From: Tubiluchus corallicola | Lineage: Eukaryota > Animalia > Priapulida | DNA length: 64,000 bases | Reading direction: 5' to 3' | NCBI GenBank assembly: GCA_030141605.1 | Contig: JAQGDQ010000012.1 | Location: 1,196,359 to 1,260,358 of the forward strand | Part shown: one piece after another, positions 7,916 to 58,657 of the stretch | Layout of the letters: each line of letters begins with the position of its first letter | How positions within the stretch are numbered: the stretch's first letter is position 1 | Made by a program: the position numbers and the translations under genes | The notes under the pieces: model-generated | Seen by the model: only the letters and a program-made list of their open reading frames with translations | Told to the model about the DNA's origin: nothing | Database searches by the model: none

Positions 7916-10900
7916 ATAGGCTACTCGTCCTCTCTCAAGTTCCAACCTGAATGGCACCTATGCTTCTATCGTATACACGAGCTGTTTTGTTTACCAGATT
8001 GTAATGGGAACTGTTTTCTGTGCGTACCATTCATTCCAGGCGGCACTTTCTAACATTTTCAAAATGGCATATTCAATCGCATTTTAGAATTCAAGAACCA
8101 AAACATTTTCAGTATTTGCGACTCCAAACGCTACTTACTGATTGAAAAAACCAAAGTAGCGTAAATACCTTTAGTACTAAAATACAGCTATCCCAAATGT
8201 ATTAATATTAGAAGTTAACTTTCAGCAACATCATCAAATGATAACAGAATGTGAACAGACAGAGGCGAAAAGTAAACAGGATAAAACAACCTCAGTCTCA
8301 ATTAAAGTTTTAGGAAACTTACAGACGAAACAACTAGCTACCGCAAATGTCAAAAACGTTATGGTCAGCAACATTGGCATAAACATAGTCATAAATTAAA
8401 GTCTTCTTTTAATTAAACATTAGCAGACTGTTTAGCCTGTTTTTGCATATAATCTAACCAGCCAGTCGAACACCGAAGCACATTAATCAAAATGCCTACG
8501 TGCATGAGAACGCTATGTGAAGAATTCACACGTGTTCATCAAGTCAGTAAAATGTAACCCAGTTATAAACCATCGTACTCAGCTATTAATTACACAAGTT
8601 CCACGCTAATTATGAGATGAAAGCATAAAATAAACACAGCTTGATACGCAGTCAGCACAAAGCCGTTTTTCTGACATTTCGCGAAATTTAACTGTGAGAA
8701 TGAACGAAAATGCTCAGTTACATAGCAGAAAGAATGAAAACATCGACAAAACGAATTCTCCCAAACTAGCAAGCGATCATCAGGCCATTGTAAACATAAC
8801 CTTAACTATAAAAAAAAACAAAAAAATCTACACTTTTTTGATTTTGCGCTTTTACACTGAAAGCTAGGCTACACATGATCAATTATAATTATTAGTTATT
8901 TCAACAAAACAATATCTAATACTTTACACATAAACATGATCAGAGTAAAATTTCTGTCAGTCAGCGTCATCACTCACAAACAAATGGCAGTTCTCAGAAA
9001 ACAATCTCGCTTTCTTTATCAAAAAAAGTATTCCTATTATACAAGCATTATAATAATATGTTACATAGTTACTAAATAACTGCCAAAAAACCTATCACTT
9101 CAGAGGAATGTGTGCCACACCTCGCATCCGACTAGCTTAGACTTTCTATTTTAAAATCAACTTAGTTAAATGGCACAGGCTGAATCAATAATTACGCCCA
9201 GCATCTTTCATTCACAGAGAAAGCGCTGGAGGGTGGGTGTAACTAGGGAGATGTATAATAATTGAAGCCACACAGGCAATAGCTACTGTAGACGTTAAGC
9301 AAGGCCAATCAATGATTCTGGTTTCCTAGTTACCACAGCGCTAAAAAGGTTAATCAGTCGTGGCAAAACCACAAGCAATGACATCGTACTATCAATAACA
9401 GATACATTAAAAGGATTACACTTCCATTACAGCCTATGCAGTGACGTAAACAGCTAACAAAAACTGATTGACTAACCCTCTTTTGATATTACAAAAATAA
9501 ATCCAGCTCAGTAACGTTAGCGAAAATTATTTTTTCTAGGTTAGAACCTGGATTTTACAGCAACAATAACAATAATTCTCCTCGTGATGTATAATGTATT
9601 CATAGTACCACGCATAACATTTAAATGTGTATATCCATCCAATTTCAAAACCAATTTTACAGAGAACGACAATTCTTTAAAAACAACAGTCAAAATATGA
9701 GTGCCATCACAACCAGCAAGTGTCAACCATTTAGTACAAGTCACAGTTTTAGAACCATTGAGTACAAGTCATAATTTTGTAACAACAACCTATTAGCGAA
9801 CACGATCTTTGAAAAGCAATCAATACATATCCATATAACAATAATCAAAAAGTGATTTACACTACAGCGACTACAACATATACCCCTAGTACATCCTAGG
9901 AGGCATATGCTCAACATAATCAAGATGTATCAATTAGGGGATTCTGGGTTCAACAAAATCTTGCATATATGGCATAATACATACCAACTCAAAACACAAG
10001 GTATGATTTACTGACCTTAATCCCTGTATAAACAGTTTGCAATTTTCATATTTATGGCTCCTCAATTAATAAACATTATAAACACTATTACAATACTAGC
10101 AAATTCGTAAATTTTTACGAAACGTGTACATATTTACGAAAAACAATGTTACATTTCGGAACTTTTTTAATAAATAGCTGCCTTATTTTGTTTCTGTCTG
10201 GTAACAGTGTCAAGAAATATGCAACTTTCTCGTCTTTTAGACGAAATTTGGTTGTTGCTATCTAGTGCTTAAGAAATTAGTGGACTTATCATAATGGCAT
10301 TAACTGCAATAATCTGTGTTTTTGAACAAAATGACTCATATAAACATATCATTAACAATATATAGAACTAATATCCTTAATTTACAATAAGTATTACAAA
10401 TTAATTAAACAGCAAGTAATATAAAATTACCAACTGGTAGCTATAGAACATTTACACAGTGTAAACTTATGTAAACACAGTGTGACACAATATGGACAAC
10501 AGAACAAGTCTAATTACAAGCTAAATTGCAAGGTGCCAAAAACCACTACAATGGTGGGTTAAGAACTTATGATAAAAAACTAAAAATATCTGCACCGAGC
10601 AGTTTCGTTATTCAGCTACTCCACTCGCTTGTCAAAACAAAAGTGAAAGGTTGGTATCTGCACTTCAAGTTAAATTAAGGAAAATTTATAACCATCTTGG
10701 CACCAGAAAGTGACAAAATTCTCAGTTTTTAAAAAGCTAAAGCCAAAAAAATCCAAGGCATTATAAAAATTAGCAGAGCACTTGTAGCTGGCTATACCAA
10801 CTATGCTAATGAAATAAATAAATAATCCCAAGTCTTTGGATTTAAAGTATAAAAATAGTGTTCCTTACTCTAGGTAAACTATGTTCTAAGTATTCCTTAT

Positions 10901-11542
10901 AAAAAATTCCCGAACTCGAAGGCAGTGGAGAATTATAAAAGACAGTTTACATTAACATGGTTGACTGATATTGCTAAACATCATAAAGCCTGTTCACACA
11001 GACCAAAGGTAAGCAATGCCATTCAGCAAGAGTTGTATAATGTACATACACATACAGTACCAGCACCATAAAGTAACTGCTTAGCTTACTGCAACAGTGA
11101 AACATATAGCCAACTAGAACTATATGCATCTCTCTAACCTGAATGAAACTAAAAAAAAAATCAGTCTACCTATTTGAAGTAATTTGACTTTTTAACACTT
11201 TTACCAAAAAATTATTATTAATGAGGATCATAGCCTCATATAAAATTACTTAAACTAAAAATAACCTGCATAACAAAATGGGCACTTATACATTAACTTC
11301 AAAATGAATAAAAAAATTAAACCAGACTGTCAGTCATTACTCTCAGAAGGACCACAGTTAAAAGTATGACCCATTTCACATTTTCATAAATGTCACTGTC
11401 TGATTTACTACTGTCCCAGCAATTTCCCTTATTGCTTTAATATCTACCCTATACACGATAAGAAAATTTATATAAATCTTGTTCCTCAAATTCTGCAGTT
11501 CTCAGGTCCATGACAAGCACTGATACTGGCCAAGTAGTTAGA

Positions 11543-13369
11543 TCACAAGAGGTACCTGATTATCAACCACAGTATCAATGATACACCAACAGTGATGCTG
11601 TTAATGTCTTTTGAACAAGCTTTTGAAGGTTTATTGTTTCTGTTCCTGTTATTATTTTTTGGTGTTGATGGCGGTTGGTTGTAAAAATGCAAGTCATCTT
11701 TGCCGCCACTCACATTGTTCTCCTCATCAAGTCTGTCAATGGTGTACGGATCAATGCCATCACCAGATTCTACGCTATACTCGTCGCCGCTTCCATGACC
11801 ACTGCCACTACCACTCCCATGATCGGCTTGTACACCATGAATCATGATATCTGCCGTGTCAATCCAATCAACGTCGACACCATTATAGGCATTTGACAGC
11901 TTTGAAGAAGCAAGCTTCAGCTGCAAAATTTGCTGGTTGACAACGGAGTTGACCCGTTTGATGTCGACCTCTACTTCAGGATTGCTGTTCTGGCTTCCAA
12001 GACCATTCCCGACAACCTCGGGCAAATAGCGAGAGACTTGGTTGCCATTCCAGCAATTTACTTCATTAGTCGCTGTGGCAGCCAAATCTTCTTTGTTACA
12101 CATTGTGTATGGAAGGTTATGCCAAAAGTTCTCTGTTGCCTTTACTTTGTTCGAGATGTCCATAACAAGTTGCTCCAAAGTTGATGATGCATCACTGTTA
12201 TATCCATTACCTTTGTTCTGAAACCTAAGAGTTTTGTACTCGAGTTCTTTGTCAGCTACTGGATCAGCAACAGGTTGAGAAGCTGCTTCTCTCTTTTGCT
12301 TGTGGGTGCTAAGCCGTGGTTGACCACAACCGGAAAACACTTTCTGGGACACCTGTGCACCATTATCCTGAAAATTCATGATGGCATTAGATATCTTTAA
12401 ATTGATGGGTTCGACAACAGACTGTATGTTAAACGATCGCCTCAGACGTTCCCCCAGCAGCTGCAGCTTCTCTATATAGTTGTTCCACTCAGTGTTTAAT
12501 TCTGCATGATAAGCAAGGCAACCCTTCATGATATTCAAACAGTAATTGTTACACGGTTTAACTTGCATGATGCCATGGCAGGAAGGACAGTAAGACATTT
12601 TCATCAAAGCTTGTTGGCACTCAGGTGATGGTTCAATGTCACCCACAGCATTTATCACATCACGTCCAATAACGATGGCTTGCACAAATGTCCGGGCGGC
12701 AACAAACGAACGCTTAACTTGCAACGACAGTGTTTGCGGAACATCACCAAAGGGCTGCAGCTCATCTAAGTACTCACTGACACATACAAGGTATTTTTCA
12801 TCAAAATGATACGGTGCATTGAGTAGAATAAATATGCGTTGATACAGATTACTGAAAAAAGTATCCATAACGTCAATGAGATTCAAGTCTGAACCATTAT
12901 AATATGAATCCAAGTCATCAAATAACATAGAAAATACCTCAGAATTTTGTTCATATAAGATGCCATAAGTTTTTTGAAACATTTCGTGAAGTTCTTGTCG
13001 GGAATTCTTCAGTAAGGTTCTAAAGAATAAATCAAATTTTCGAGTTTGCTTAATAAACTGATTTCTGACAAGGGAAAGAGAGTCTTCTAGCAGTGACGAA
13101 AATTCTTTTGAACAATAATGAGAAAGCTTCTTCTCCATAGATTCAGTACAGCAAGTTTTTCGTGTTTTACAAATTCGAAGGTTTTCACCTTCAATTAGCA
13201 ATGGAGGCACATCATTGTCCACTTCTGGCAGACCCATAGATTTATAAAGTCGTTTGACATCTGTACATGTTGTAGCATTACTTAGCGCTAATGTGAAACT
13301 GGGAGAAATCACAACTAATAATACGAAAACACTAATATAGCACGGCGTTAGCCAACCTTCGCCCGCCAT
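11543..13369 (-). CDS. GPC4/6: Glypican, GPC4/6 (dally-like) subfamily, 608 aa, no coding introns
   Basis: N-terminal signal peptide; conserved Cys pattern (LRIC...TCC, CPSC...KPCNNYC.N.MKGC, CWNG); PFGDVP..L..QVKRSFVAARTF; basic convertase-like site KQKR; Ser-Gly heparan-sulfate attachment cluster in acidic context (GSGSGSGHGSGDE..SGD); hydrophobic C-terminal GPI signal. Confidence 0.97.
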   Translation of the reverse strand: MAGEGWLTPCYISVFVLLVVISPSFTLALSNATTCTDVKRLYKSMGLPEVDNDVPPLLIEGENLRICKTRKTCCTESMEKKLSHYCSKEFSSLLEDSLSLVRNQFIKQTRKFDLFFRTLLKNSRQELHEMFQKTYGILYEQNSEVFSMLFDDLDSYYNGSDLNLIDVMDTFFSNLYQRIFILLNAPYHFDEKYLVCVSEYLDELQPFGDVPQTLSLQVKRSFVAARTFVQAIVIGRDVINAVGDIEPSPECQQALMKMSYCPSCHGIMQVKPCNNYCLNIMKGCLAYHAELNTEWNNYIEKLQLLGERLRRSFNIQSVVEPINLKISNAIMNFQDNGAQVSQKVFSGCGQPRLSTHKQKREAASQPVADPVADKELEYKTLRFQNKGNGYNSDASSTLEQLVMDISNKVKATENFWHNLPYTMCNKEDLAATATNEVNCWNGNQVSRYLPEVVGNGLGSQNSNPEVEVDIKRVNSVVNQQILQLKLASSKLSNAYNGVDVDWIDTADIMIHGVQADHGSGSGSGHGSGDEYSVESGDGIDPYTIDRLDEENNVSGGKDDLHFYNQPPSTPKNNNRNRNNKPSKACSKDINSITVGVSLILWLIIRYLL

Positions 13370-18426: not shown

Positions 18427-19998
18427 TTACACTTTTTGCGAGTATTCATCAACTACTTCTTGCAGAAATATTATCCACTTTCTTTGCCACAAATTATAAG
18501 CCTTCTCCTTCTCCTGTTCAGATAGGGTACTGTATTTGATAGAGTTGAGAGAAAGTTTCTTAAGTGTTGCCAAGTTGGCATCTTGACCAGCTATGCCCAT
18601 GAAAAACTCATAGAAATCATAGGACAGTCCACTGGCACCCCATAATGGAGGATCATCAGATCCAATTACCATGGGATGATCCTGCGCAAATAAAGTACTA
18701 GCTGGGTGGTTTTGCAAATTATTGACTAGGCCCAAGACTTGGTTTGATATTGGACACAGTTCAATGGGTATGTCTTTATCTTTTGTTACTTTAATGCACA
18801 TTGGGTGTTTTGTAATCGCATAACCATGTCCAATGCGTTTGGTATTAAGTAGTATAGCATCTATGAGATTTCTGTCAGAGGATGTGCCAAAATCATTAGT
18901 CTCGCCAGCGTGGAAGAAATATGGCAAGTCAACTGGGGGATTTAATGTAGACGGATACAGCAATTCATTTCGAAATTCATAAAGTGGCATTCCTAAATCC
19001 TCTTGACCAACTAGATCAAATCCTGTAAAAATATCCGGATAATTTTTCTGAAATGAAAGAGACTGTTTAACACATTCCAGAACAACCTCTTTTGAAGCTA
19101 CTCTGTGAATACAATATTGAAGTTTTGCACCAATAAAGTCTGTATTATCATTAACAAATTGTTTTGTCGTTTCATCGTACAATTTGAGTGCCCATTCCAA
19201 ATCATGAGTACTACCATCTAATTCATATACACCACCTGCTCCCAGTAAGGATCTAAATTCCAGAAACATTACATTGTCAGCATGAAATTCTGCTAAACCG
19301 GCATAATAATAATCTCTGAATACTGGAGCATAAAAAATCAAACCAATTATGGTGCCAAAAATCTGTTCGAAACGTTTCCAAACAACGTCTATATTAGGAT
19401 ACACCTTCTCTGGTTCAGCAACAAACAATGTCAGTTTACTGCTTAACCATTCATCAAACTCAGCAACATTCCTTGCTGCCTTACGCTCATCTGCTACAAG
19501 TTTCCATTCGCAATCATTCTCTTTTGCTGGAGGAGTAAGAGAAAACCGGAACTGCAGATTGTCTTTGCCAACACACATATAGCAATGCTCGCGATACGTA
19601 GCATTCTTTACAAGCCAGTCACCAGATGTGATAGCTAAGTCGTGAGTGTGCAAACACCCACCTTTTGGCATCTTTCTAATTATTCTGAAAACACGACTGT
19701 CATCTATTAGTTTTTTTGCACGGAAGAAATGCATGGCAGGTGGAAACAAGCGAGTCTTTTTAGCAGCCTCGAACTCGTCCAACTTTTCCCTGTTCAATAT
19801 TTCAGACACACGCTGTTCCAAACCAAACAAGTTTTCTCCTCCACCTAGCTGAAGCGATAACTCTTTTGAAAGAATATTCTTCCTCTTATCGTCGTAACTT
19901 CCCATGTTATTTAGCAAGCTCATCAGCACTAAACATAATCGTAGAACAGCACCGTATCGTTTTTTTCCTAGTCCAGCAATTGCGTCCCTGCACGCCAT
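18427..19998 (-). CDS. ADA2: Adenosine deaminase 2 / ADGF (CECR1) family protein, 523 aa, no coding introns
   Basis: ADGF N-terminal motif FPPAMHFF.AK..I..S.VF.II..MPKG; Zn ligands LHTHD and FFHAGET; GFDLVGQED; RIGHG; ELCPISNQVL; SDDP. Catalytic motifs intact. Confidence 0.96.
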   Translation of the reverse strand: MACRDAIAGLGKKRYGAVLRLCLVLMSLLNNMGSYDDKRKNILSKELSLQLGGGENLFGLEQRVSEILNREKLDEFEAAKKTRLFPPAMHFFRAKKLIDDSRVFRIIRKMPKGGCLHTHDLAITSGDWLVKNATYREHCYMCVGKDNLQFRFSLTPPAKENDCEWKLVADERKAARNVAEFDEWLSSKLTLFVAEPEKVYPNIDVVWKRFEQIFGTIIGLIFYAPVFRDYYYAGLAEFHADNVMFLEFRSLLGAGGVYELDGSTHDLEWALKLYDETTKQFVNDNTDFIGAKLQYCIHRVASKEVVLECVKQSLSFQKNYPDIFTGFDLVGQEDLGMPLYEFRNELLYPSTLNPPVDLPYFFHAGETNDFGTSSDRNLIDAILLNTKRIGHGYAITKHPMCIKVTKDKDIPIELCPISNQVLGLVNNLQNHPASTLFAQDHPMVIGSDDPPLWGASGLSYDFYEFFMGIAGQDANLATLKKLSLNSIKYSTLSEQEKEKAYNLWQRKWIIFLQEVVDEYSQKV

Positions 19999-21250
19999 AA
20001 CGAAAAACTGGTTTCAAAAACGAAATTCCTAGCGCTGTCGTGAGCGAACACGTCGTTACCAAGTAGAAACATCATTGTCGATGAGAACAATCACTGTTTT
20101 TTTATTTTTAGCGACAAATTTCAAACCACATTTTGCACTTAAGAGGCTAATTTCACGACAAATCTATAAACTTTTCTCTGCTATTCTCACCATATCATTA
20201 AATAACCGGAAGACATGCTGTACTTCCTCAGGCCACTTGACCTTCTTGACACTTCTGAAACCCTGCACTGCGCTGCTGCTGCAGTGCTGTACGTCTTAAT
20301 TCTTAACGACCTCTATAACATCACACAACATGCACGTGCGCATACATGACCAGCTCGGCTCGCTGCTCCTTTGCAACGCACAGCGTCATCTATTATACTC
20401 AAATAAATTTAAATCAATATGGTTATTTATCTATGTCGATTGCTGAGCACTATGCATTTTCATGCTCCGCTTGGCCAAGTGCTTGTTGTAAATTTCGGTT
20501 AGTCGGAATTCGGAACTTGCAACAAGTTCATCGGTCGTAGTAGATTAGTATGGTGTGGCCGTAGTTCACTCACGTGTCAGGCATCACACACCAGCTCTCA
20601 GTCACTCACGACTGTTTGTTGACCCAATTTACTTGCGCTCATCTATATTATCCTACTCATTGATTCATTTACTCATTGATTTACTCTACTCATCTACTCC
20701 TTGATCATACATCCACCCATTGACTCGTGCATTAAAAGAAAAGCCAAGGCTATTGGGTGAACTTATTTTAATATTTGAGAAAAATATTAATAAGTTTCAG
20801 CATTAAAACTCTGGTAAGCGTCTTGTGTAATTAATAAAATCAATTTAAAATCGCGATAATTTCATGTATGGGCGCGTTCATTTGAACGAAGAATAACCAT
20901 GTGGTTATCGTGCAAAATAAACACCTATCCATCCGGCATCCAGGTGCTGGAACAAACTAATGCAGCTGCAGTTACTATTATCAACTACAAACAATCCAAA
21001 ACGTTAAACGAGAAATAATTAATACTGTTTATCTCGCTACTCAGTATCTAATAAAAAGCAATCACCGAAGAAACAATCACCATGGAATTAACCCCGTGAA
21101 AGTAATAAAATAAACTAAAACCGAACTCAATAAATTAAGTAATTGCAGTGCGAGTGAAACTACAGACGCTTTGCAACGCGTGCTTTCACAACATTCACGT
21201 TGCCACCAGCTTACGTCATTTTTTCAGATATGCCTGCAGCGAGGTTTGTT

Positions 21251-21801
21251 CAGAGATGAGCGGATCACAGTCTGCGGCGTGGATTGAACCAACCAAGATT
21301 TGCAACAGTTTTTGCAGATCGGACCGAACTACAGATTTGTTATTGAAAATAATGCGGATGGCATAAAACATTTTTTTATCACTGTTAATCGCCGAAGTGC
21401 AGTCTGTGTTTAGTAAATGAGTCCGTTTTTATTTTATCCTGCTGATATTTACTGTCATTCTCAATTAATTTGTTTGTTTTGTTTTCCTGATGAGAACAGA
21501 CTGCAAACAACAATTTTTTTATTTTTTATCACACGTACTGCAGCTGCGCGTTTTTCAAAATGTAAGTTATCGTTGTACAAGATTTTTTGGTAAAAGAATT
21601 AACTTTTGATTAAAGTTAGCTTTTTGAGCAGGATTGCTAATTTGAAATTTTGCGAATCGGGCAGGAGTTCGATTCACAAATTGAAAAGTTCAGTGGCGGG
21701 AGCAAAATGCCGCTTTAAATGCAGTTCAAGCGGACTGCGGATTTGCAATTTACGGACCGATTTGTTGCGGACTGAGAAATTAGCCGATCCCTCCACTCAC
21801 G
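21251..21801. mobile_element. Degraded hAT-like non-autonomous element
   Basis: Starts CAGAGATGAGCGGATC; GCGGA/CGGAT subterminal motifs at both ends; right TIR only about half matching; flanks GGTTTGTT / TGTTCGTT match 6/8. Confidence 0.35.
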
Positions 21802-22336
21802 TGTTCGTTTGGCGGGCGGGAGATGAGAATAATTTAAATTTCTTTTGCATTTTTAAGTTCAGATTGTGTGATAATTTCGATTTTTTCAATTATTGCATAT
21901 TAATTTTTTGGAATACTGCATAACATTCTGATTCAGAAAGAACAAAAAGCATTTGCGTTGCAATTAATTCCAAAAACAACTGTGTTCTCCTTCAAATTAA
22001 CCTGATGTTCAACGAATTTTGAAGACTACTACGTAGAGGGCAACACAAGTCCTTGCAAAGATGCAAAAGTAACTTGATCACTAAACAAACAGTTAAACTA
22101 ATTAAGCGATCAGACTAACATCATAAATTTTGAAAAATATTTTGCCAGAAATTGACACCTCAGCACACGGAGCGTCGTTCACACATAACAGCAAGTGCAT
22201 CAACAAATTGACAATAGCGTCAAACTATAGAAAAATGTATATGTATATAATTACATATGATTACAAAAATCGGGGTTGCACTAGTCTTACCTCTTTGGGG
22301 CAGCTAAAAAAGCTAAAAACGTAAACGTGCACTTAC

Positions 22337-22468
22337 CTTAAAACTGCTGTTGAATTCTACTAGTCCATCTCTGTCTGCATCCACATCTATTGAGATCATA
22401 ACTGATGTGATGTGCACTTCCGCTTGAGATATCAATTCATTGCGCGATGTTTTATAATTATAAATGAC
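22337..22468 (-). CDS. PADI: PAD-like gene, coding exon 5 (132 nt, phase 0/0)
   Basis: Acceptor ttatctttttgcgattgtAG, donor AAG|GTAAGT. Encodes VIYNYKTSRNELISQAEVHITSVMISIDVDADRDGLVEFNSSFK, matching recalled human PADI2 VTVNYY...QAGLFLTAIEISLDVDADRDGVVEKNNPKK. Confidence 0.9.
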
Positions 22469-23133
22469 CTACAATCGCAAAAAGATAAATAATCGCTTAT
22501 TCGGTCTACTATTTATTAGCAAGCTTATTAGTCAAATAATATTACATACACATTAGCGTTATTCAAAATATAAAAGTAAAATAAAAATAAAAACAAATAC
22601 TTCAAAAATTACTATAAATGCAAGAGACTCCAGAAGCGCATAATTGCTTATTAACGACAAGGGCCACCATATAACACAGTCAATACTAGTCGTACACTGT
22701 ACAATATTGTACACTAGTCGTTACTGTACAATAAATAAAGAAGAAAATAATCGATCTATTTACATACATGCCTAATTAAAATAACATGACATGATCACCT
22801 AATTATTTAGCAAATAATGCTTGTGTTTATTTTTAAATCTAGAATTTAATTAGTTGGGCTTCGAATTTCAATTCCATTTCAGTCAATTCAATAGATTTAT
22901 TTGTCCCTTTGTGTTACATAATAAAGTACGCTGCATAATCATTGACTAACAAATGGAAACAGAAACGAGGCGGCGAAAAATCTAAAGTCACCTAAGCTGC
23001 CACCCCCATACCACCATCAATATTCATATTTGAATGCCATGTTATTTTTCGTGATATAGTATGAGTGCTTGGCTGCAGTATTTTCATTTATAGATGACTC
23101 TACCATATGCAATATCTATCACAGCTTTCCTAT

Positions 23134-23309
23134 TAGTCTGGTCTGTTAAGGCCAAATGTTGATGAAATGGGGACTGACTGGATACAGTTACCAAACTTTC
23201 AGGAATGTACTATTTGTACCATTTTGACCTAAAATGGCCTAAAAACATTCCTGGAAATTTGGTAGCTGTATCCAATCAGTCCCCTTTTTTCGGCTGACAG
23301 ACCAGACTG
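23134..23309. mobile_element. Palindromic MITE (about 176 bp), probably Tc1/mariner-type, in PAD intron 4
   Basis: AGTCTGGTCTGT / ACAGACCAGACT termini and a second inverted block GGGGACTGACTGGATACAGTTACCAAACTTTCAGGAATGT / ACATTCCTGGAAATTTGGTAGCTGTATCCAATCAGTCCCC; TA near both flanks. Confidence 0.8.
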
Positions 23310-23584
23310 TATTGCACACTTCAACTTCTACAATGAAATAAACACTTTTTGCGAGCAATTTTGTGCATATTGTGTCCGTTGCCACTGGTTCTAGCTTTAT
23401 TTTGTTTTGCTTACGGCACCTCAAGTAAAAGAAAATTGTTATCAACGTGCAACGACGAGCATTATTAAATTTAATGTCGGATAAAATGTTTTGAAAATGT
23501 AGGATGGCTCGCGCTGCGCAGCCTAGTTTTTATAACGATATTGCACACTGCACCAACACATTTACGTATGCTGTGCAGTTTTCT

Positions 23585-24562
23585 CGTGGCGCGGTGAAAA
23601 TGGCACGGTAAAGTGGCACGCAAAAAATGGCACAAATATAAAAGCAGGTAAAAGCAAGGCACGTATTTTGGTGCAATTGATTTTCATAATAAAACTAGAA
23701 TGCACTCAATAGGAAGCAGATCTCTACCAAAGTTGAACAATCCTAAACTTATTCGACTGATTCTTTAGATTAAAAAAATTAACAAAAAGATAAACAAGCA
23801 AATATACAAAAATGTGCCAGTATTGGTATTATATAGAGTAGCAAAAGGCTAATATTTGTTTATTAAACAGATTTATAATCAATAATGCACGAATGTTAAA
23901 CATAGTGTTTATCTCCCTTTTTAAAATTAATTTTGGCGATGGTAATAGACTGACAAATGTATACGTATTTACATACCAAATCACCTTATAACGCTATACA
24001 CATTAATAAGCAAAGGTTGTAGACAGCGCTACACAGTTTTACAAGCGAGAATTTCTCGAAATGGAACTGGAACTAACTCGTAGTTGTTTGTCTAGGTGGA
24101 GATAATAAAAAATAAGTATTAAACACTCCCACTGAGACCTTCACAAAATGCCTCACGAATGTTTTTTATATGTGGTGTTCGGTTAAGTTTTGCGAAAAAA
24201 GAACTGGCGAAAAGATTCCCAATTTGGTACCCTAAACCCCGCCTTTCTTCACAAGGTTTCTTGGAAATCTGTTAGATAGTTTTTGCGTAATAGGCTTACT
24301 GTTGTAACAGACGAAAAAACCAAACAAACAAACTATGTTGAATCATGACTTCCTTGGCAGAGGTAAAAATAAGTAAAATAATTATCCCCCACTGTAAACC
24401 TAACCCTAAACACAGATTTTACAAAGTGTGCCATTTCTTCCTGTGCTATTTTTACCTACGCCATTTTACTTTTTTTTCCATTTGTGCCATTCTTTCATGT
24501 GCCATTTTTACCATGCCATTTTTACTGTGCCATTTTTAGCTGTGCCATTTTACCTACACATT
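23585..24562. mobile_element. Non-autonomous DNA element with inverted terminal arrays of AAAATGGCAC (Mutator-like)
   Basis: AAAATGGCAC repeats at 23597-23662 face GTGCCATTTT repeats at 24428-24551; CCTAACCCTAA at about 24399; flanking direct repeat CAGTTTTC at 23576 and 24563. Confidence 0.65.
23694..24365 (-). mobile_element. Helentron/DINE-1-like non-autonomous element nested in the previous element
   Basis: Minus strand starts TTACCTCTGCCAAGGAAGT, then a (GTTT)n microsatellite, and ends CTTTGGTAGAGAT...GAGTGCATTCTAGTTTT: subterminal inverted repeat, CTAG end, inserted in an A/T run. Confidence 0.65.
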
Positions 24563-24625
24563 CAGTTTTCGCGCTAGATTCTGAGGTTTTTAATGATAAT
24601 CGTAGAAGAAACTTATCCCAGGTAC

Positions 24626-24770
24626 CTTTATATCATCTAAGCTCTTGCTGGCGTTATGCACATGTATAAAAGAAATAGGAGCGGTAGGATAAAAAATGTC
24701 TACGCTAACTCGCGAGGCGGCATCATAACCTTCGACTTCTGCATTGATAGTTGTAATGAGTGATGTTGCC
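24626..24770 (-). CDS. PADI: PAD-like gene, coding exon 4 (145 nt, phase 2/0)
   Basis: Acceptor ttttgatctctattttAG, donor AAG|GTACCT; open frame (G)ATSLITTINAEVEGYDAASRVSVDIFYPTAPISFIHVHNASKSLDDIK ending in AS....D.K as PAD exon 2 does; phases fit both neighbours. Confidence 0.78.
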
Positions 24771-25269
24771 CTAAAATAGAGATCAAAATAAGCATTGTAA
24801 CTTCACTTGTGCAAAACGCCATAAAGTCCGTTTTATTTTTTTTACCGATAGATGGAGCAATGTGCTTTTTGTTTCCTGCTGACTGAGCGTAGCATGTTAC
24901 TCACCTCAGCTTACTACCTCATACTAATGTTAGTTCTTACTCTTCCAAAAAGATGAAAAGTTAAAGATTAATGGTGAACGTCAAAGTAAAATTGGACTAG
25001 GTGTAGTCTGTTTGTTTAGTGCTAGTGGGGACTGTTCGTTTAGTTGTTTTTATACAAGATGCGATGTCTAGAAATCTATGTACAGTAGTTATATTCTCAC
25101 TCTTTAATATAATAAATAATTTTACTAGTGGCTTTAACTAATGTTTAAGACTAATAACTTCATGGACTTTTGTGTTCTGCATTCTCTATATAGCTATAGA
25201 CAAAAATAAGATTTAGGCATATTAGTCTATTCGACTGCATATTAACGAAAAATACTAAACGTTACTCAC

Positions 25270-25359
25270 CCTGTCAGCTTAACACAAGTTTTCTGCCCAA
25301 CAACATTGAGGACGTGCGACACGAGTCCAAATTTGAGTTCAACGATTCTCTGTCTTGAA
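25270..25359 (-). CDS. PADI: PAD-like gene, coding exon 3 (90 nt, phase 2/2)
   Basis: Acceptor ttttatattactctAG, donor GG|GTGAGT; only one open frame, SRQRIVELKFGLVSHVLNVVGQKTCVKLT, aligning with recalled PADI2 N-terminus LRERTVRLQYGSRVEAVYVLGT. Confidence 0.82.
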
Positions 25360-25731
25360 CTAGAGTAATATAAAACTCTGCAAGTCTATTAGGTATTTTA
25401 ATAGAACAATAATAATATTATTATTTTGACATCAGTACGAATAAATTAAATTAAGTGTATTAAAGGAAAGTTATTAAATACTCATTAATGTCAGATTGAA
25501 AGAAATCAAAAACAATTAACTAAGGACATTAGGATTTCCAGTCATGCACTTTTAAAAATGTTTCATTAGTCTTTTGCAACAAAAGCGAATAATATTATTG
25601 GGAGCAGAATCCTTCTAATACAGCTTTGAGTGGACGTTATAATTAAGTAGCCCAATTTTTTTATTTCTTTAAATATGTGCATATATAATTATTGTAATAT
25701 TTCTGGTGGCTCTGAAAGTCGAGATGATTAC

Positions 25732-25838
25732 CATTCTTTATGAAGATAATGATAGTGTCCGGCATGTGGATTGACTCGATTGCGTCGGTCGGTAAAGTGT
25801 TTTCTTCTTCTGGGTTCCGATATCAGAAAAGGAAGCGA
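25732..25838 (-). CDS. PADI: PAD-like gene, coding exon 2 (107 nt, phase 0/2)
   Basis: Acceptor gtttattttgactccAG, donor TG|GTAATC; open frame SLPFLISEPRRRKHFTDRRNRVNPHAGHYHYLHKE(C); phases fit both neighbours. No homology support. Confidence 0.65.
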
Positions 25839-26443
25839 CTGGAGTCAAAATAAACACATAACACGATATTAGCTAGAGCTGTCACGTTAGTGATTAAGTA
25901 ACAAAAAAAAAGCACAAACGCAAGTCGATTTTTCTTCAAATCGACAGTTTAGTTCTAGATCCACATTCTACGTTTATACTTTTAACTTGCTAATTTTCCA
26001 CACCACCCTTAGTTGGATGAAGTGGCCAGAAGAATAGAATAAAATGCCAACTATAGAATTTGTCAATTTAAAATTAAAGTAATTTATTTGGCATTATTAT
26101 CAAAATTGTGTACAATCGACAAATCTGTCCATTACAAATATCAAATTATACGCTACAAACTCTACACCTTATTATTATTGCGATTATCTTCATCCTATTT
26201 AGCTTACAGCTATACATTCAACCAAAAAACGGAAGCAGAATAAAACAAAGGAAGAAGACAGACACAAGAGAATGGAATGGAGAACTAGGCAAGGTAAAAA
26301 GAAAGTAAAAGCAGTCAGGCAGTCAGTTAGTCAATCAGCCAGCTACTTGACTGACAGTCTGTTAAATCAGTCGGTTGTCGGTTATTTCAATTGGAATAAC
26401 TATGTAGCACAAGCAAATAGACATAATTCCTTCATTCAATAGT

Positions 26444-26576
26444 CATTCATTCACTCGTTCGTTCGTTCATTCATTCATTCATTCATTCATTCATTCATTC
26501 ATTCATTCATTCATCCAGCCAGCCAGCCAGCCAGCCAGCCAGCGCCAGCTATTGATTCATTGATTCATTCATTCAC
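26444..26576. repeat. Compound microsatellite (CATT)n-(CCAG)n
   Basis: Directly visible tetranucleotide runs in PAD intron 1. Confidence 0.95.
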
Positions 26577-26723
26577 AAGTTGTTACTCACTCGGTCAGTC
26601 AGACAGCTAGCCAGCAGCCAATTAGTCAGGTTATTTTCTTTTGTCAATCAGTCGTATCCGGTATCCGAGTGGATATAAAATTTTAGCTCTAGAAGTAGCA
26701 AAGATGTCGTCACGAAAACTTAC

Positions 26724-26759
26724 CAACATGAATATAAATGCTATGGTCCTAGTTCTCAT
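26724..26759 (-). CDS. PADI: PAD-like gene, coding exon 1 (ATG plus 11 codons)
   Basis: ATG at 26759, MRTRTIAFIFML, then consensus donor TTG|GTAAGT in phase 0; joins exon 2 to give a continuous hydrophobic signal-like peptide. Confidence 0.65.
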
Positions 26760-45730: not shown

Positions 45731-45790
45731 GGACACGAATTCTCAAGCGAAAAAATCAGTGTAGACGAAGCTCAAGGTGGTCACCATTAA
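45731..45790 (+). CDS. Candidate second part of the small upstream ORF (19 codons plus stop)
   Basis: Strong acceptor cttttttttatttttctAG|G at 45730; phase-0 reading GHEFSSEKISVDEAQGGHH-TAA. Confidence 0.4.
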   Translation, partial: GHEFSSEKISVDEAQGGHH

Positions 45791-45803
45791 ATTACGCTCA
45801 GCG

Positions 45804-48800
45804 ATGATTTCAATGTTGAAATCTCTGGGAAAATCTCACCAGCACTTCATTTCAGCGACAACAGACGGCAGCACAAACATAGTTAACGGTGATGATCAAA
45901 GAAATGGAGATGTTTGCAGCGCTGACAAAAAGATACCGAATCGCGCTGACAGTGAACAGGAATTAAAAAATAATCAACAAGTTTTGATTAATGGCCTTCC
46001 AGATCTGGCGCTGGATGCTGAAAGTGAATTTGCCAATTATAATGGTAGCGAGCGAAAAGCAGGAAAGGATTCCCGATTCAAGATAAGCCCGTCCGTGTTT
46101 TCGGAAACTAAAAATATCGAATCGCCAAGTACTGATATGAAATATAATGCGTCTGGCACACGAGTAAAAGTCAGTTCCTGTAAAAAACCGAACAGTTGCG
46201 ATACTATGTCATCTGTAATGGATTCGGTTACCACTTTGAGTTGTGAGCCGAGTTTAGCAAACGGCAGCAGCAGTGTAGCAACAGAGTGTTCCAGTAGCGA
46301 CATTTCCGCGGATTCAGTACAGGCGAAGCCAGAAGACGAGGTTCCGGAACCTATCTCAACAAATAAACAGAGTGAATGCGAAGAACTGGACATTGACTTC
46401 GCTCTGGGCATCGTTGATGTGCGTGGAAAAAGCAGCGAGAAAAAGTCAGTTGACGCTAGGAGTGAATCAAAAACAGGACTGCCTAACAAAACAAATGCAA
46501 GTCTGTACGGTTGTCAAAATGAAGTGAACGACAGTGATGATGACGTGTCTAACAAAATTCTTGATATATTAGTGGAAGAGTGCTCTCACTTGAACAATAA
46601 AGTTGTAAACAAACACGACCAATTTGATTTGGGAGTCTTGCAAAACGGCATTTTGAAAAACTGTGTCAAGTTTAGAGATGATTCGATCAGAAAGCGAGTG
46701 TCTTTTTCAAACAGTGTGACAGAAGTGAGTTTTGAAGTCGACAGTGACTCGTCCACTGATAATGAATCTACAGCTGAGGACAGTGCAGTCAGTGGGTGTG
46801 AAAACTTGAGCTTAACAGACAGATTGGCAGCTATAAAAGATCACTTAAATTACACAATAGAAGCGTCAACAACTGTACCTGCAGAGGACAATGTGGAAAA
46901 AATCTATTCTTGTGTCACAGGTAACATTACAAGTGGACCTATTTTATGCGAGGGAGAAGCCGATTTCTCTAGTAATAACAGTTTGCCTGTTACGCAAGAT
47001 TCATTAGCCGACAGCTGTGTGACGAATTCCGAAGCGAAGCCGTTTTCTCGAGTTACCAGCAATGAAAACACATCAAATGCCGATGCTCTTATTCCGACAC
47101 CTTACCGTCTACCGCGGCTTATATATCAACCCGGGCAGAACTCTGAATCCACAAATACAGCGACCGCGAACGTGACGGGTGTATACTCAGACGCACACTC
47201 TGGGCCTTTGTTGGAGATTTTCAACGCACAGTCCATTAACAATCATAACATCGAGTGCAATGATGTAAATAGTGGCATATATTACTGCAATGGTAAAACT
47301 GGTGATTTAGACTTTGAAAACAGACACATTAGTAATGACATTGTGGATCAAAGCGGAGACGAATTAACAAGAGAAAGTAATAACGCAATTAGTAAAGAGA
47401 ATAACGGTGTCAGCGTGTCAAAACCCAACGAAGAACACCTGGCGATGTTTGTTCAAAGTGAATATAAAGTAAAACCAGATCGTGGAAGCCATGCTCCGGA
47501 TTCGACCGGATTGCTGGCTGACGATAAACAGACTGACAAAACAACAACAACAACATCAACGTCGCAATTATTAGGTCATTTGGTTGAAATGGATATTGAT
47601 GACGCACTTCAAACTCGTGGTGAATTCGTCAGCAAGAACAGCAAAGTTTCTGCCGGTAATGATGACTACAGTTGTAATCTTGCTTTAAACAAAAGTCAGC
47701 CGAGTATAATGGGTTCAGATCAGAAAACTGATTACTGTATTAGCAGAAAACCAGATAAAAACAGAGCTGATGTGACATTTTCGAGTAATGAACTGCTGCC
47801 GTCCTCACCAGCATCAACAACTCAAGAGTCACAACAAGCCCCGCAACAAACACCACTGTCGTTACTGCTGTCGCCATCATTGAAACAAACTGACATCACA
47901 CAGGAAGACCGAATATGGCGCCGAGAAATGAGCCCTGGTGTTGATGATGAGGACAGTGATTCCAGCACTGCTTCACAGGACACCATGATTAGGCGGTCAC
48001 CTGTAAAAAGCATTCGTGTACCTCAGCAAGATAATGATCACTCTCTGGTAACACTTGAGCACAGAGAAAATGCAGAAATGGCTATTAAGTATCAGCAATA
48101 CGACTTGAAACGAAAAGCACTGGAACGGAAAAACTTAAATTTGAGAATAGGTCACTGCCCGGCTCTCAGACGGACAGCGGCCGCAGGCGTGGACGAGTCT
48201 TCATGTAATGATTTAGAAGAAAAACTAAAAATGCTTAATCTGTTCGAGAAGGGTAGTCAAGCAACCAATACACCTGATGCATTATCAGATAACTGTAATA
48301 TAGGTTCAAGTGGTCAGTGCGCTGGAATGGAGAAAATAAGTGAAAATACCTCAAGTGAATATGTTTCAGCGGTTGAGAGCAATGGTGAAAAATGTCCCAA
48401 TCCTCAGAACTTCCCCGCGTCATTGGTGCAAACAGTCGTGTCATGCATACCAGCAGTACCGTGTAATCTCTCGGTAGGCAAGCTGGCTGATAATTGTAGT
48501 TCAAAGACTTCTAATGACTGTTTGACATTGGATAGTATAATTACTAGCAAAACTGACCTGGATATGCTAATAACTGTAGCAAGTGTGACCACAGCAAACT
48601 CGGTTGAACAAAAGAGTGTTTTATCGCCGTGTTGCGCATCTCCAGGCAGTTTGGATGTGGTTATGGATGAGAAATTGAACGTTGCTGTGGGCAAAAGTGC
48701 AGACAACCTTGTTGAACGGTTCTATGACCCAACCGATTACAGACCACAGTGTAGCAGTGGTGATAGTTGCGTGCAAGATCGTAGTCCCTTCAGTCCGAGT

Positions 48801-51800
48801 AAGTCAAATACCGAAAAACGTGGTAGTAATTACACTGACGTGAAAGAAGATAACACTGTTGTTGCACAGTGTAGTGATAAATTAACTTCAGAAACAAACG
48901 ATTTTACAGAAGCGAGTTCCATCGAAAGTATCAGTTCAGGCAACATAGCATTGAATACTAGTAAAATAGCGTGCCGCGTTGATGAAGTGAAGCCTCATAC
49001 AGTCGCTGCAGCTGCATATACAAGCAGAGCCACTCAGAGTTTTAACCAAATAAAAACAAACAACCAATCTGTTTTAGCAAGAAAACCAGAGAGTCACACC
49101 GCCGCCGGAAACGACCCGTTTAAAGAAAAATTGAGTCGAACTAAATTCGAGGCTAAAGCTAAACCAGTCAAAATGATTTTGCCGCAGATGAATCATCAAG
49201 CCGGCGAAAGAAAAAGTGAATCCAGTTCATACAGTAACAGCGTGGATTGGGAAGATATTGGACTGCAACTGCATAAAAAGTATCAGAGCAATAATGTAAA
49301 TGACCTCTTGTACAGCATACATACCTCATACGGCATGGCGGATCAGCTGGATCAACTAGATTTGGATTTTCCGGATGTTAAAAATCTGGATCGCGATACT
49401 AGCGTATATTTAAGCGAGACTGAAGCGTCAAATGACAATATATGCAGCTCGCCCAGTCAACGAACTACTGACACTCATGAACAAAGGGTGAAGATGGAAC
49501 GAAAGTTGGAGCGCTTGCGCTTAGAAATGGAAAAAACTTGTTTCAGCTCCCGAGTGAAAAACAGGGCTAGAGGGCGACAGAAACGCAATCCAGACAGATT
49601 CTGTTTCTCCGACGTGGAAGACGACAATGAAGTGGAGTCCATGTCTCCATCGGATGACAGGTTCTATATGTCGGATTCTGAGTGTGTTAGAGGCTCAAAA
49701 ACAAAGAAACGAAGCAATAAAAGTTACACAGAGAAAGACCTGAATCAAGTTTTTCATCGGTTACAGATACCACAGAATGTGGGTAGAATATACAGTGATG
49801 ACGAAGTAACGCGTGTTATAACAAACAGCTTGCAACGTCACGTTGAGAATGAGATTGTTAGAAACAGCATGGACAACCTTCTGGACACACCAGACCATTA
49901 TAGTCCAGATTGGGACCAAATCGGATTTTCTGACAGTGAACTTTTGTCCGACGGCAGAACCAAGCCGGATCCAAAATTGTTGGGCAATGGAGACATTCAT
50001 CTCCGGGTTGATGAGGCATCACATAAACGCCTTGATGTTTCTGGCCCAACTTATGAGCAACATTATCCCACTGCAGAACCCAATTTTGCTATGTATGCTC
50101 AATCGCAGAAAAAACATATAAAATACGAGTCTCGTCTTCCAATTCCAAACAAACCCATTTATAAACCCCCAGGAATCCCAATTAGTGACCAGTCACCTGC
50201 TCGGTCCGTTCCTATAAAGCGAATGCCAGATATGCAATATCACCTTAAAAAGAACACAAACAGAAACACTGGTGCCTGTAACACGCCTAGCGCAAACGCA
50301 AAACCGTCAAGGAAACCGGATAGTTTAACACCTGACAAACAAAAGGAGGAAAAGACAAATCGGCAGGCATTGCAGCTCGAAGTGGAAAGTAATGCCCAAA
50401 GCAAAAATGCAAACGCGATTGACCCTGTTCAGCAACGTTTGTCAAGGCCATCTCGGATTTTTTGCAATTTTTTCAAGAAACAGAAACTAAATATCAGCAG
50501 GGCTCTGTCACCTGAACGGAAAGAGAAGAGTTCGCAGCCATCATTGAACTCTGACCAGATTCGAAAGAAAATGCAGGCTAATCTTAGCAAGGCAACCATT
50601 TCAGAGCCTCAAAATCTAAGGCGAATAACTCATTCTGCTGACAAATCCGACGAACTGAAGAAATTTGTCAGTCAAGACTATCAGCGAATTAGGAAAGTTT
50701 GTGAGCGTTATAAAAGAGACGAACGTGATGACTTTGAGAGTCCAAATCGCAGTGATTCGATCAGTAGTGGTCAGCGTCCAAAATTCTGCACTTCTGCGGA
50801 AATTTACCAACAACTGGAAAGCAGAGTACGCCCTCCACGTGTCCAGCCAAGGTCTGATTCAGCACCATTAAATGGTGTTGATCACACCCGTAGTGGCCGC
50901 CAAGGTGTAGCCAGAAGTCAAAGTCTTATAGCAGGAAGACCAGACAAAGTGCATTTACGAAATCGAATAGAGTCTCCGGGTTCCAGTTCTAGCGCACCTA
51001 CTATAGTTGAAGAACAACTAGCAAATTCCATTGACAGTAGTCCTCAGCATGGCCATCGAGGTAATATAATAAACATCAGACAACAACAAGTATTTTTGGA
51101 AAACGGTCACTCGGGAAGTTGTCATCAGGTTAAAAATAAAACGAAAATAATAAGACCAAATGCTAGTGGTCGTTCAGAAATACCGCGAAGTGGATTATCA
51201 TCCATAGTCCATGATCAACAAGGCTACATGCGGGGTTCACCCGGACATCATGGTTCTCCTCTTCGAGGTGGTTCTCCTCAGCAAGGGCAATCTCCTGCTT
51301 CTCAACAACGTCGACAGGTGTCGCCACAATTTGCACAGACCTCGCCAATATCTGTGCCGAACAATCAATCACACCCCATAGGTCCAGTTCCTCATTCACA
51401 AATGAATGGCTTCATTCGAAAATCAGCTGATACCTCTCTGCAGCTCCCTCTAGCTCAGGTGCTTTCCAGCAACATCCCGGAAACGGAAGTCAGTGGAGCA
51501 TCTCCCAGTCAGAATGTAAAACTGGTGACTAGGTACACAAATAATGGCGCATTCATTCAACTTGCGTACAAAGCTAGTCCTCAGACTCCGTCTCCCATAG
51601 CAACCAATCGCCATGAAGTTGAGCCTCCACCATTGCATTCACAAAAGTTATTAAATGATTTTCAAAATCCTAAAATTACTCACGATTCATCTTTGATTTA
51701 CCAGCACCATAACACACAGGCGAATTATCCTCACGGTGTCAATGGGTGGAATGATCCCGGTGTTTTACCTCATCGAGGGATGCCTTACCGTTACGGCTAT

Positions 51801-52082
51801 GAACATAACGAACGACAACCAGGGTCACCACAAATACGTCAAGGTTTACCAGTACTACATCGGCGGCGGCTGTTGCCAATGTACGCAGCTTCCCCTCTGG
51901 ATGAACAAAATAAGCCCGTGCCACCAATGAGATTAGAAAGTCTACCCAAATCGTCCAACGAAAATAATTTCAACTTTGATACTGAAAGAGGCTTAGTTCG
52001 AGAAGTTCACAATCTCAATCAACAAGATGCTCCTACTTTGGTTGACCGAAGTTCTGATGAAAGGACTTACTATCCACCCTGA
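45804..52082 (+). CDS. Uncharacterised 2092-aa Ser/Asp/Asn-rich, probably disordered protein; candidate PP1-interacting scaffold
   Basis: 6.3-kb uninterrupted ORF in AT-rich DNA; in-frame TAG at 45762 makes ATG 45804 (or 45813) the start; GILK and KRVSF motifs, SxIP-like motifs, short coiled-coil-like stretches; no globular domain recognised. Confidence 0.88.
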   Translation: MISMLKSLGKSHQHFISATTDGSTNIVNGDDQRNGDVCSADKKIPNRADSEQELKNNQQVLINGLPDLALDAESEFANYNGSERKAGKDSRFKISPSVFSETKNIESPSTDMKYNASGTRVKVSSCKKPNSCDTMSSVMDSVTTLSCEPSLANGSSSVATECSSSDISADSVQAKPEDEVPEPISTNKQSECEELDIDFALGIVDVRGKSSEKKSVDARSESKTGLPNKTNASLYGCQNEVNDSDDDVSNKILDILVEECSHLNNKVVNKHDQFDLGVLQNGILKNCVKFRDDSIRKRVSFSNSVTEVSFEVDSDSSTDNESTAEDSAVSGCENLSLTDRLAAIKDHLNYTIEASTTVPAEDNVEKIYSCVTGNITSGPILCEGEADFSSNNSLPVTQDSLADSCVTNSEAKPFSRVTSNENTSNADALIPTPYRLPRLIYQPGQNSESTNTATANVTGVYSDAHSGPLLEIFNAQSINNHNIECNDVNSGIYYCNGKTGDLDFENRHISNDIVDQSGDELTRESNNAISKENNGVSVSKPNEEHLAMFVQSEYKVKPDRGSHAPDSTGLLADDKQTDKTTTTTSTSQLLGHLVEMDIDDALQTRGEFVSKNSKVSAGNDDYSCNLALNKSQPSIMGSDQKTDYCISRKPDKNRADVTFSSNELLPSSPASTTQESQQAPQQTPLSLLLSPSLKQTDITQEDRIWRREMSPGVDDEDSDSSTASQDTMIRRSPVKSIRVPQQDNDHSLVTLEHRENAEMAIKYQQYDLKRKALERKNLNLRIGHCPALRRTAAAGVDESSCNDLEEKLKMLNLFEKGSQATNTPDALSDNCNIGSSGQCAGMEKISENTSSEYVSAVESNGEKCPNPQNFPASLVQTVVSCIPAVPCNLSVGKLADNCSSKTSNDCLTLDSIITSKTDLDMLITVASVTTANSVEQKSVLSPCCASPGSLDVVMDEKLNVAVGKSADNLVERFYDPTDYRPQCSSGDSCVQDRSPFSPSKSNTEKRGSNYTDVKEDNTVVAQCSDKLTSETNDFTEASSIESISSGNIALNTSKIACRVDEVKPHTVAAAAYTSRATQSFNQIKTNNQSVLARKPESHTAAGNDPFKEKLSRTKFEAKAKPVKMILPQMNHQAGERKSESSSYSNSVDWEDIGLQLHKKYQSNNVNDLLYSIHTSYGMADQLDQLDLDFPDVKNLDRDTSVYLSETEASNDNICSSPSQRTTDTHEQRVKMERKLERLRLEMEKTCFSSRVKNRARGRQKRNPDRFCFSDVEDDNEVESMSPSDDRFYMSDSECVRGSKTKKRSNKSYTEKDLNQVFHRLQIPQNVGRIYSDDEVTRVITNSLQRHVENEIVRNSMDNLLDTPDHYSPDWDQIGFSDSELLSDGRTKPDPKLLGNGDIHLRVDEASHKRLDVSGPTYEQHYPTAEPNFAMYAQSQKKHIKYESRLPIPNKPIYKPPGIPISDQSPARSVPIKRMPDMQYHLKKNTNRNTGACNTPSANAKPSRKPDSLTPDKQKEEKTNRQALQLEVESNAQSKNANAIDPVQQRLSRPSRIFCNFFKKQKLNISRALSPERKEKSSQPSLNSDQIRKKMQANLSKATISEPQNLRRITHSADKSDELKKFVSQDYQRIRKVCERYKRDERDDFESPNRSDSISSGQRPKFCTSAEIYQQLESRVRPPRVQPRSDSAPLNGVDHTRSGRQGVARSQSLIAGRPDKVHLRNRIESPGSSSSAPTIVEEQLANSIDSSPQHGHRGNIINIRQQQVFLENGHSGSCHQVKNKTKIIRPNASGRSEIPRSGLSSIVHDQQGYMRGSPGHHGSPLRGGSPQQGQSPASQQRRQVSPQFAQTSPISVPNNQSHPIGPVPHSQMNGFIRKSADTSLQLPLAQVLSSNIPETEVSGASPSQNVKLVTRYTNNGAFIQLAYKASPQTPSPIATNRHEVEPPPLHSQKLLNDFQNPKITHDSSLIYQHHNTQANYPHGVNGWNDPGVLPHRGMPYRYGYEHNERQPGSPQIRQGLPVLHRRRLLPMYAASPLDEQNKPVPPMRLESLPKSSNENNFNFDTERGLVREVHNLNQQDAPTLVDRSSDERTYYPP

Positions 52083-58134: not shown

Positions 58135-58441
58135 GGAATGTAACGAATCAGTTAGCATGTTCAATTGTTACTATCGCGAAATGCGTTAAAATGTAGCTAA
58201 AAAGTATAGGCCTGGTGTAAAAGTGAGAAAGTTGAGAAACGGGGAATGCACGAATCCCTTGCATAGATGGAGCCACCGACTAATAAAAAGTCACACAAAT
58301 CTCAAAATCACCGATCCATACGGCCCAAAGCCGTCAACTGCATTCCAGTGGCAAATCTAATTATTATTGACGAGCTGTGATTGGTCAACTTCCGTGACGT
58401 CAGAAGAATACTATGCGGTGGGGTAATGAGTTCTGTCAGTT
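58135..58441 (+). promoter_or_regulatory. kibra promoter: three TEAD/MCAT cores, CCAAT box, ETS core, CRE and initiator
   Basis: GGAATG at 58135 and 58243, CATTCC at 58341, ATTGG at 58380, ACTTCCG at 58388, TGACGTCA at 58395, TCAGTT at 58436, all within 400 bp of the ATG. Confidence 0.65.
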
Positions 58442-58529
58442 TAGGAAAGAAAATGGTGGCTGGCCTGTGCGTGATTTGTGCGAAAAAACCGATTTAGATG
58501 TGCTGAATTCAGTGGTATTACAGCGAAAT

Positions 58530-58657
58530 ATGCCAAAGAGAAAAAATGGGGAATTGCCACTACCCGATGGCTGGGATATGGGTCGAGATTATGATGGGAA
58601 AGTCTTCTTTATTGACCACAAAACTCAACATACAACTTGGGTTGACCCGCGAGACAG
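58530..58657 (+). CDS. kibra: kibra/WWC family gene, first coding exon (first WW domain); gene continues beyond the window
   Basis: [42 protein letters not shown](R) matches recalled WWC1 [27 protein letters not shown]...SWIDPRDR; donor AG|GTATGC in phase 2 within the last Arg. Exon 2 not found before 64000. Confidence 0.92.

Follow-up and report, generated by a model that had tools for sequence, protein, structure and literature searches.

The front of an animal-type peptidylarginine deiminase gene with a predicted secretion leader on a Tubiluchus corallicola contig

A chain of five predicted exons on the minus strand

We analyzed a stretch of 64,000 nucleotides (the window; positions count from its first letter) from contig JAQGDQ010000012.1 of Tubiluchus corallicola, which holds a real gene fragment of a known family, the peptidylarginine deiminases (PADs, or PADIs). 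The fragment consists of five predicted exons of 36+107+90+145+132 = 510 nt, whose coordinates are those given in a preliminary description of this DNA:

26724..26759, minus strand: coding portion of exon 1, 12 codons from an ATG that has A at -3 to a phase-0 donor; encodes the n-region of a predicted signal peptide and half of its h-region (the first half)
25732..25838, minus strand: exon 2; the rest of the predicted signal peptide and, after it, 29 residues rich in Arg, Lys and His; phase-2 donor
25270..25359, minus strand: exon 3; start of PAD_N, corresponding to what the first exon of vertebrate PADI genes encodes; its phase-2 donor coincides with an exon border of chordates (profile position 37)
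24626..24770, minus strand: exon 4; middle of PAD_N, strongly diverged, with an N-glycosylation sequon at residue 117; its phase-0 donor coincides with an exon border of chordates (profile 97/98)
22337..22468, minus strand: exon 5; runs from the end of PAD_N into the start of PAD_M, with a sequon at residue 166; its phase-0 donor fits the consensus and coincides with an exon border of chordates (profile about 141)
22355..22381, minus strand: DxDxDGxxE calcium-site motif, Asp156-Glu164, with a spacing that fits D125 and E131 of the PADI2 calcium site Ca6
22313..22336, minus strand: read-through of exon 5 in a rival model; donor 5 unused, 7 more codons, then TAG, giving a 177-residue product

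The open chain with GT-AG sites and compatible phases that had been described was found again in the sequence. Specifically, the spliced exons give 170 codons without a stop or frameshift, the donors are all GT (5/5) and the internal acceptors all AG (4/4), and the phases of exons 1-5 are 0, 2, 2, 0 and 0. Scored with an approximate matrix of textbook frequencies, the donors of exons 1-5 stand at percentiles 99.2, 92.7, 99.9, 96.1 and 99.9 among minus-strand GT sites, and the acceptors of exons 2-5 at 95.2, 90.1, 98.2 and 95.2 among minus-strand sites. Exon 5 ranks first among the 280 candidate internal exons that an ab initio scan found in the window. The coding-model score of exon 2 is highest in the predicted frame (4.6 vs -6.4 and 2.7 bits), and the scores of exons 1 and 3 are negative. 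Judging from an acceptor-like site at 26834, exon 1 may begin there, with a 5' untranslated region (UTR). No duplicate of the PAD exons was found elsewhere in the window.

Contigs of run X1 span the introns and behave as DNA, and run X2, which we guess to be RNA, has no contig on the PAD exons; neither run bears on expression. Exon 4, the sole exon fully covered in run X1, carries one substitution (synonymous by our reading) and no indel, and about 1.06 kb of intron carries 13 substitutions and 3 indels, too few overall to test selection.

Homology to PADs and the calcium site

As judged from sequence, exons 3-5 are a PAD_N domain and the start of PAD_M with an intact Ca6 motif. The likeness to PADI2 that had been proposed for the whole chain thus stands for these three exons; exons 1 and 2, which have no PAD similarity in our profile, form a separate leader. 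Against this profile, built from 31 PADs with Priapulus excluded, the spliced peptide scores 42.8 bits (profile positions 5-138) and exons 3-5 alone score 42.3 bits, in support of the earlier assignment. When exons 3 and 4 were shuffled, 0/500 sequences reached 42.3 bits, the highest coming within 1 bit of it (41.3; median 30.4), and the contribution of the two exons is about 12 bits above the shuffled median. The Ca6 segment scores 30.5 bits and the matching Priapulus piece 34.8. D125 and E131 of PADI2 are among the residues assigned to Ca6 (PMC8826395).

Single exons carry uneven and mostly weak signal. Exon 5 alone retrieves human PADI2 chains as its first PDB match (E=1.5e-4), and its open stretch aligns with PAD_M (PF08527) at E=0.16 over profile positions 1-22 of 159. 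The Pfam comparison proposed earlier gave a partial answer, with exon 3 matching PAD_N (PF08526) at E=0.088 and 13.6 bits, under the cut-off of 25, and exons 2, 4 and 5 matching nothing in Pfam. Exon 4 alone has no match to the 31-PAD profile, and exons 3 and 4, each alone, found nothing in PDB and nothing in the Priapulus PADI. Pairwise comparison with 120 PADs gave a best E of 1e-12 and a match at E<=10 in 104/120; this set of long, mostly animal PADs was collected with a cyanobacterial three-domain PAD as query, together with cluster members, and is biased to proteins of at least 684 residues. A three-domain PAD of Aulosira matched pairwise at E=6e-8. With exon 5 as query, no relatives were found in the protein collection or the genome contigs, plasmids returned parE noise and the Atlas gave no usable match; a match in the representatives library (P0121) was rejected as a tandem-repeat artefact.

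The PAD_N region of the window is 28% identical to the Priapulus PADI, 21-31% to animal PADs and 20-22% to cyanobacterial PADs. In the tree, a 100/100 branch parts 18 animal rows, the window included, from the cyanobacterial PADs; this placement on the animal side is tentative, the tree having 2 cyanobacterial rows, 135 columns, a long window branch and no outgroup.

Introns shared with chordate PADI genes

Three introns had been noted as apparently coinciding with those of vertebrate PADI genes, and 3/3 introns in the PAD-homologous part fall at chordate gene-model borders. These borders were inferred from breakpoints in database protein models, not from genomic annotation; a literature search found no published PADI4 intron coordinates. 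At profile 37, where the codon is split by the phase-2 intron of the window, first exons switch in four fish isoform pairs and Branchiostoma isoforms insert a cassette. At profile 97/98, where the phase-0 intron of the window sits after profile 97, the intron is retained in one bird model, and a skip starts in four models of B. belcheri and one of a sturgeon. At profile about 141, a mammal model retains the intron and the sturgeon and B. belcheri skips end; Lys170 aligns here in MAFFT, and hmmalign left the final residues unplaced. Translated read-throughs of the chordate models appear consistent with phases 2, 0 and 0. A border at profile 120/121 occurs in vertebrate models only, and exon 5 of the window has no intron there. 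With one codon of slack and insertion-site bias ignored, the rough chance of 3/3 coincidences is 1e-5. Fish PADI2 genes (P0283/P0288, P0267/P0270 and other pairs) have two alternative first coding exons, each with the first PAD_N strands.

As far as the sequences can tell, three introns at chordate positions show common descent with the chordate PADI genes, and the gene would date to the common ancestor with chordates. The vertical descent proposed earlier is thereby upheld for an intron-bearing animal PADI ancestor; on the cyanobacterial transfer the shared introns are silent, because introns could arise after transfer.

The N-terminal leader

Exons 1 and 2 add 48 residues ahead of PAD_N. Exon 3 begins where vertebrate PADs begin, yet has no in-frame Met, and therefore the start must be upstream. 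The leader has a short positive n-region, a 15-residue charge-free stretch and a plausible cleavage site after Ser19 (about 25818), and the 29 residues that follow hold 8 Lys or Arg, 5 His and one RxxR at residues 30-33.

We applied a simple heuristic rule of our own, not SignalP. It calls a signal peptide in this leader and in isoform X1 of the Priapulus caudatus PADI (XP_014670176.1), which has an extra 47-residue leader that isoform X2 lacks, in 0/112 chordate PADs and in 79/119 secreted ADA2 controls. Of the 23 first-exon candidates that lie no more than 10 kb from exon 2, the one at 26724..26759 has the strongest donor (8.5 bits vs 6.3 for the next) and is among the three (3/23) with a signal call. 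A second signal-like first exon (26874-26824) was set aside as a translated polypyrimidine tract. The 122 PAD residues of the chain hold two sequons. Taking these points together, we put the odds slightly above even that the leader functions as a signal peptide and is cleaved behind Ser19. A literature search, mostly of non-subscription papers, found no work on a PAD signal peptide in Priapulus.

Downstream genes and the missing catalytic domain

Although described as a gene, the five exons are not a whole one, and about 500 residues, among them the entire catalytic domain, are absent from the window. PAD_C (PF03068), with the Cys/His/Asp active site and the D389 calcium switch, is absent from both strands of the window. 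No further PAD exon was found among 3,489 six-frame window fragments, where the best score besides exon 5 is 4.4 bits; as a control of profile sensitivity, 16/18 downstream 30-residue pieces of the Priapulus PADI score at least 12.8 bits. Searching the window by tblastn with 80 bacterial PADs, whose frames were taken from a motif scan of prokaryote genomes, also gave no further PAD exon. The 22.3 kb beyond exon 5 hold two genes on the same strand:

18427..19998, minus strand: adenosine deaminase gene of the ADA2/CECR1 type, free of introns, that has an ATG and a signal-like leader of its own
11543..13369, minus strand: intronless glypican gene, covered by contigs of run X2 (which may be RNA)

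In animals, glypican and ADA2 genes usually have several introns. The window ADA2 is about 44-51% identical to all relatives among the best 120 of 1391 matches, which include no Priapulus ADA2, and its tree has no resolution. An acceptor-like AG before 20007 (90.1th percentile) is in frame with the phase-0 donor of exon 5. If the PAD gene continues, the ADA2 and glypican genes would be nested in its intron 5, and we consider it fairly probable that this intron exceeds 22.3 kb and holds both. The near-perfect donor of exon 5, together with the conserved calcium strand, favours a gene that continues past the window, and the conservation of Ca6 suggests continued constraint on a domain that requires the missing exons.

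The window is exon-poor, and a WW-domain exon has no clear next exon in the last 5.3 kb. By read depth of run X1, high-copy repeats lie at 20674-22007, between exon 5 and ADA2, and at 23342-24560, in intron 4. An AATAAA-type signal stands at 21523. The ADA2 and glypican genes are arranged in tandem behind the PAD exons, and all three genes would encode extracellular or surface proteins. Behind the glypican stop, contigs of run X2 (possibly RNA, about 90% identical) take up much of a 3.5 kb stretch (8001..11540, minus strand), suggesting a long 3' UTR.

Other features of the window

45765..52082, plus strand: single open frame of 2,105 codons, Ser/Pro/Gln-rich, with no Pfam match; a donor-like site at 51881 precedes the stop, and the frame may be a giant exon
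58404..58657, plus strand: WW-domain exon that we take to resemble the start of KIBRA/WWC

Interpretation

We propose, with a probability of about 0.45, that the five predicted exons form the 5' portion of a three-domain PAD gene of animal type, with a predicted leader that would secrete the enzyme and catalytic exons that likely lie past the left edge of the window. The new element is a likely secretion leader in a known enzyme family. The leader would most likely direct the protein into the endoplasmic reticulum and then be cleaved. The basic segment could be removed at RxxR by a proprotein convertase or could tether the enzyme to heparan sulfate. With its calcium sites occupied at the high calcium level outside the cell, the enzyme would stay active and, unlike vertebrate PADs, would not depend on calcium influx. 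In vitro, activation of PADIs takes at least ten times the intracellular calcium (PMC9174705). The secreted enzyme would citrullinate proteins outside the cell, an activity that is predicted, as the catalytic residues are not in the window.

Several observations weigh against this proposal, beginning with those on the leader. The heuristic misses 40/119 ADA2 controls as well as the glypican of the window itself, and chance frames in this AT-rich DNA are called positive in 22/208 cases. The leader shares no sequence similarity with that of Priapulus (1018/2000 shuffles score as high), and the latter is low-complexity and could be a translated UTR repeat. Sequon density in the Priapulus PADI is ordinary, at 0.54 per 100 residues against 0.41 in chordates. 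Exon 3 could also be joined directly by twelve candidate first exons that have no signal call. Moreover, it contains a weaker acceptor, 10 nt from its start (25349), through which a cytosolic form could begin at an ATG near the 3' end of exon 2, with the Met directly ahead of PAD_N. The gene could then be a full-length, ordinary cytosolic PADI that starts at this ATG or in another first exon, the signal-like leader being a product of chance, for which the two counts of signal calls give a rate of about 11-13% (22/208; 3/23). Vertebrate PADIs are located in the cytoplasm or nucleus (PMC9174705), and the coding-model scores of exons 1 and 3 fit such a gene as well. We nevertheless regard a cytosolic PADI as unlikely, since the acceptor at 25349 ranks low (59.7th percentile, against 90.1 for the main acceptor of exon 3), exon 2 has good splice sites and is open in the exact frame and phase required, and Priapulus X1 provides a second signal-like leader.

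Other contrary observations concern the end of the gene. The window has no catalytic exon, the four measured introns are just 0.4-2.2 kb long, and two nested genes on the same strand would be unusual. The branch of the PAD_N region is long (2.5 vs 0.82 for Priapulus), which would fit a relaxed or repurposed paralogue; together with the 28% identity, it may mark a divergent paralogue or a gene from a distant genus or phylum. The long branch, with the repeat element at 20674-22007, the AATAAA-type signal and the absence of any window fragment above 4.4 bits besides exon 5 where controls are detectable, would also suit a truncated PAD, left by a partial duplication, a broken gene or an assembly break, from which either nothing is made or a secreted 177-residue PAD_N protein. 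We find this rather improbable, because the consensus donor and the conserved Ca6 strand are retained and 170 codons are free of stops and frameshifts; moreover, if the exons were a recent partial duplicate, there would have to be a full-length parent gene that begins in the same way. Least likely is a PAD_N-ADA2 fusion protein made by splicing exon 5 onto ADA2. The acceptor before 20007 is fair and keeps the frame of exon 5, and ADA2 is the nearest long coding exon downstream, but the matching frame is a one-in-three chance, ADA2 has an ATG of its own in good context together with its signal-like leader, and a PAD domain occurs in 0/120 ADA2 relatives (287-916 residues searched; best 120 of 1391).

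If the gene indeed encodes a secreted three-domain PAD, it would offer a natural model of citrullination outside the cell, from an animal PAD that carries a secretion leader of its own, and would alter the view of the early animal enzyme's role. With a priapulid as the source animal, an intron-bearing PADI would predate the protostome-deuterostome split. In a protostome, the three shared introns would speak for a single inherited gene rather than a second transfer. Whether PADI entered animals at the root of deuterostomes or of bilaterians was left open in PMC8826395, where Priapulus is the sole protostome case; the words 'intron', 'signal peptide' and 'secret' do not occur in the main text of that paper. 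Our literature search, again mostly of non-subscription papers, found nothing on invertebrate PADI intron positions or on a deiminase in a priapulid genome. A broader and decidedly tentative picture is that priapulids make a dedicated pre-pro-PAD, an ancient three-domain enzyme preceded by an added signal peptide and basic leader, that would be exported, on by default in calcium-rich body fluid, and would citrullinate cuticle, matrix or immune proteins; by its shared introns, PADI would then have arrived in animals before the protostome-deuterostome split.

Comparison with known systems

Cyanobacterial three-domain PADIs (Clade Ai, PMC8826395; Aulosira L073, Desmonostoc P0122) have a degenerate PAD_N and the Ca6 motif of the window and, unlike the window gene, no introns. 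Bacterial PADs of 1,294-1,625 residues (P0228, P0230, P0235, P0240) are fused to OmpA-like and peptidoglycan-binding domains.

In Branchiostoma, PADI paralogues have gene-model breakpoints at the three borders of the window gene, and four B. belcheri models jump from 97 to 141 in one step, matching exon 5, whereas Branchiostoma leaders are short and without a signal call. The sequences of one Branchiostoma paralogue (P0125, P0127, P0196 and P0197) begin with Met-Gly and have Cys at position 4, which we take to resemble a myristoylation and palmitoylation pattern; one amphioxus PAD may, by its N-terminus, be membrane-anchored.

Vertebrate PADI2 (PDB 4n20 series, 9ovq) and fish PADI2 run from PAD_N into PAD_M with the Ca6 motif, as the window gene does, and have the introns at profile 37, 97/98 and about 141 in common with it. 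They differ in that vertebrate PADI2 has the extra intron at 120/121 and the window gene has two extra 5' coding exons. Mouse ePAD/PADI6 was reported as a secreted cortical-granule protein with a signal sequence (PMC1215517), so that a signal sequence and secretion have been claimed before for an animal PAD. That prediction was made with SignalP 2 on a protein apparently without a separate leader, whereas the leader of the window gene is a separate two-exon addition, and a later review places PADI6 in the cytoplasm (PMC9174705).

The closest known system is the PADI2-like protein of Priapulus caudatus (XP_014670176.1, X1, 740 aa; XP_014670183.1, X2, 693 aa), an invertebrate three-domain PADI. 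The PADIs of P. caudatus, Saccoglossus and Branchiostoma have already been published (PMC8826395), so that the invertebrate PADI noted earlier holds as PAD-like and is not new for a priapulid; XP_014670176 also appears in a table row of PMC5422933, and in the alignment of the PMC8826395 supplement the Priapulus sequence begins without the leader. Unlike the window, the Priapulus PADI has catalytic motifs on record, and the two do not group with support and have unrelated leaders. In common with the window gene, it has the same Ca6 motif and, in X1, an N-terminal leader outside the PAD fold that is signal-positive by the heuristic.

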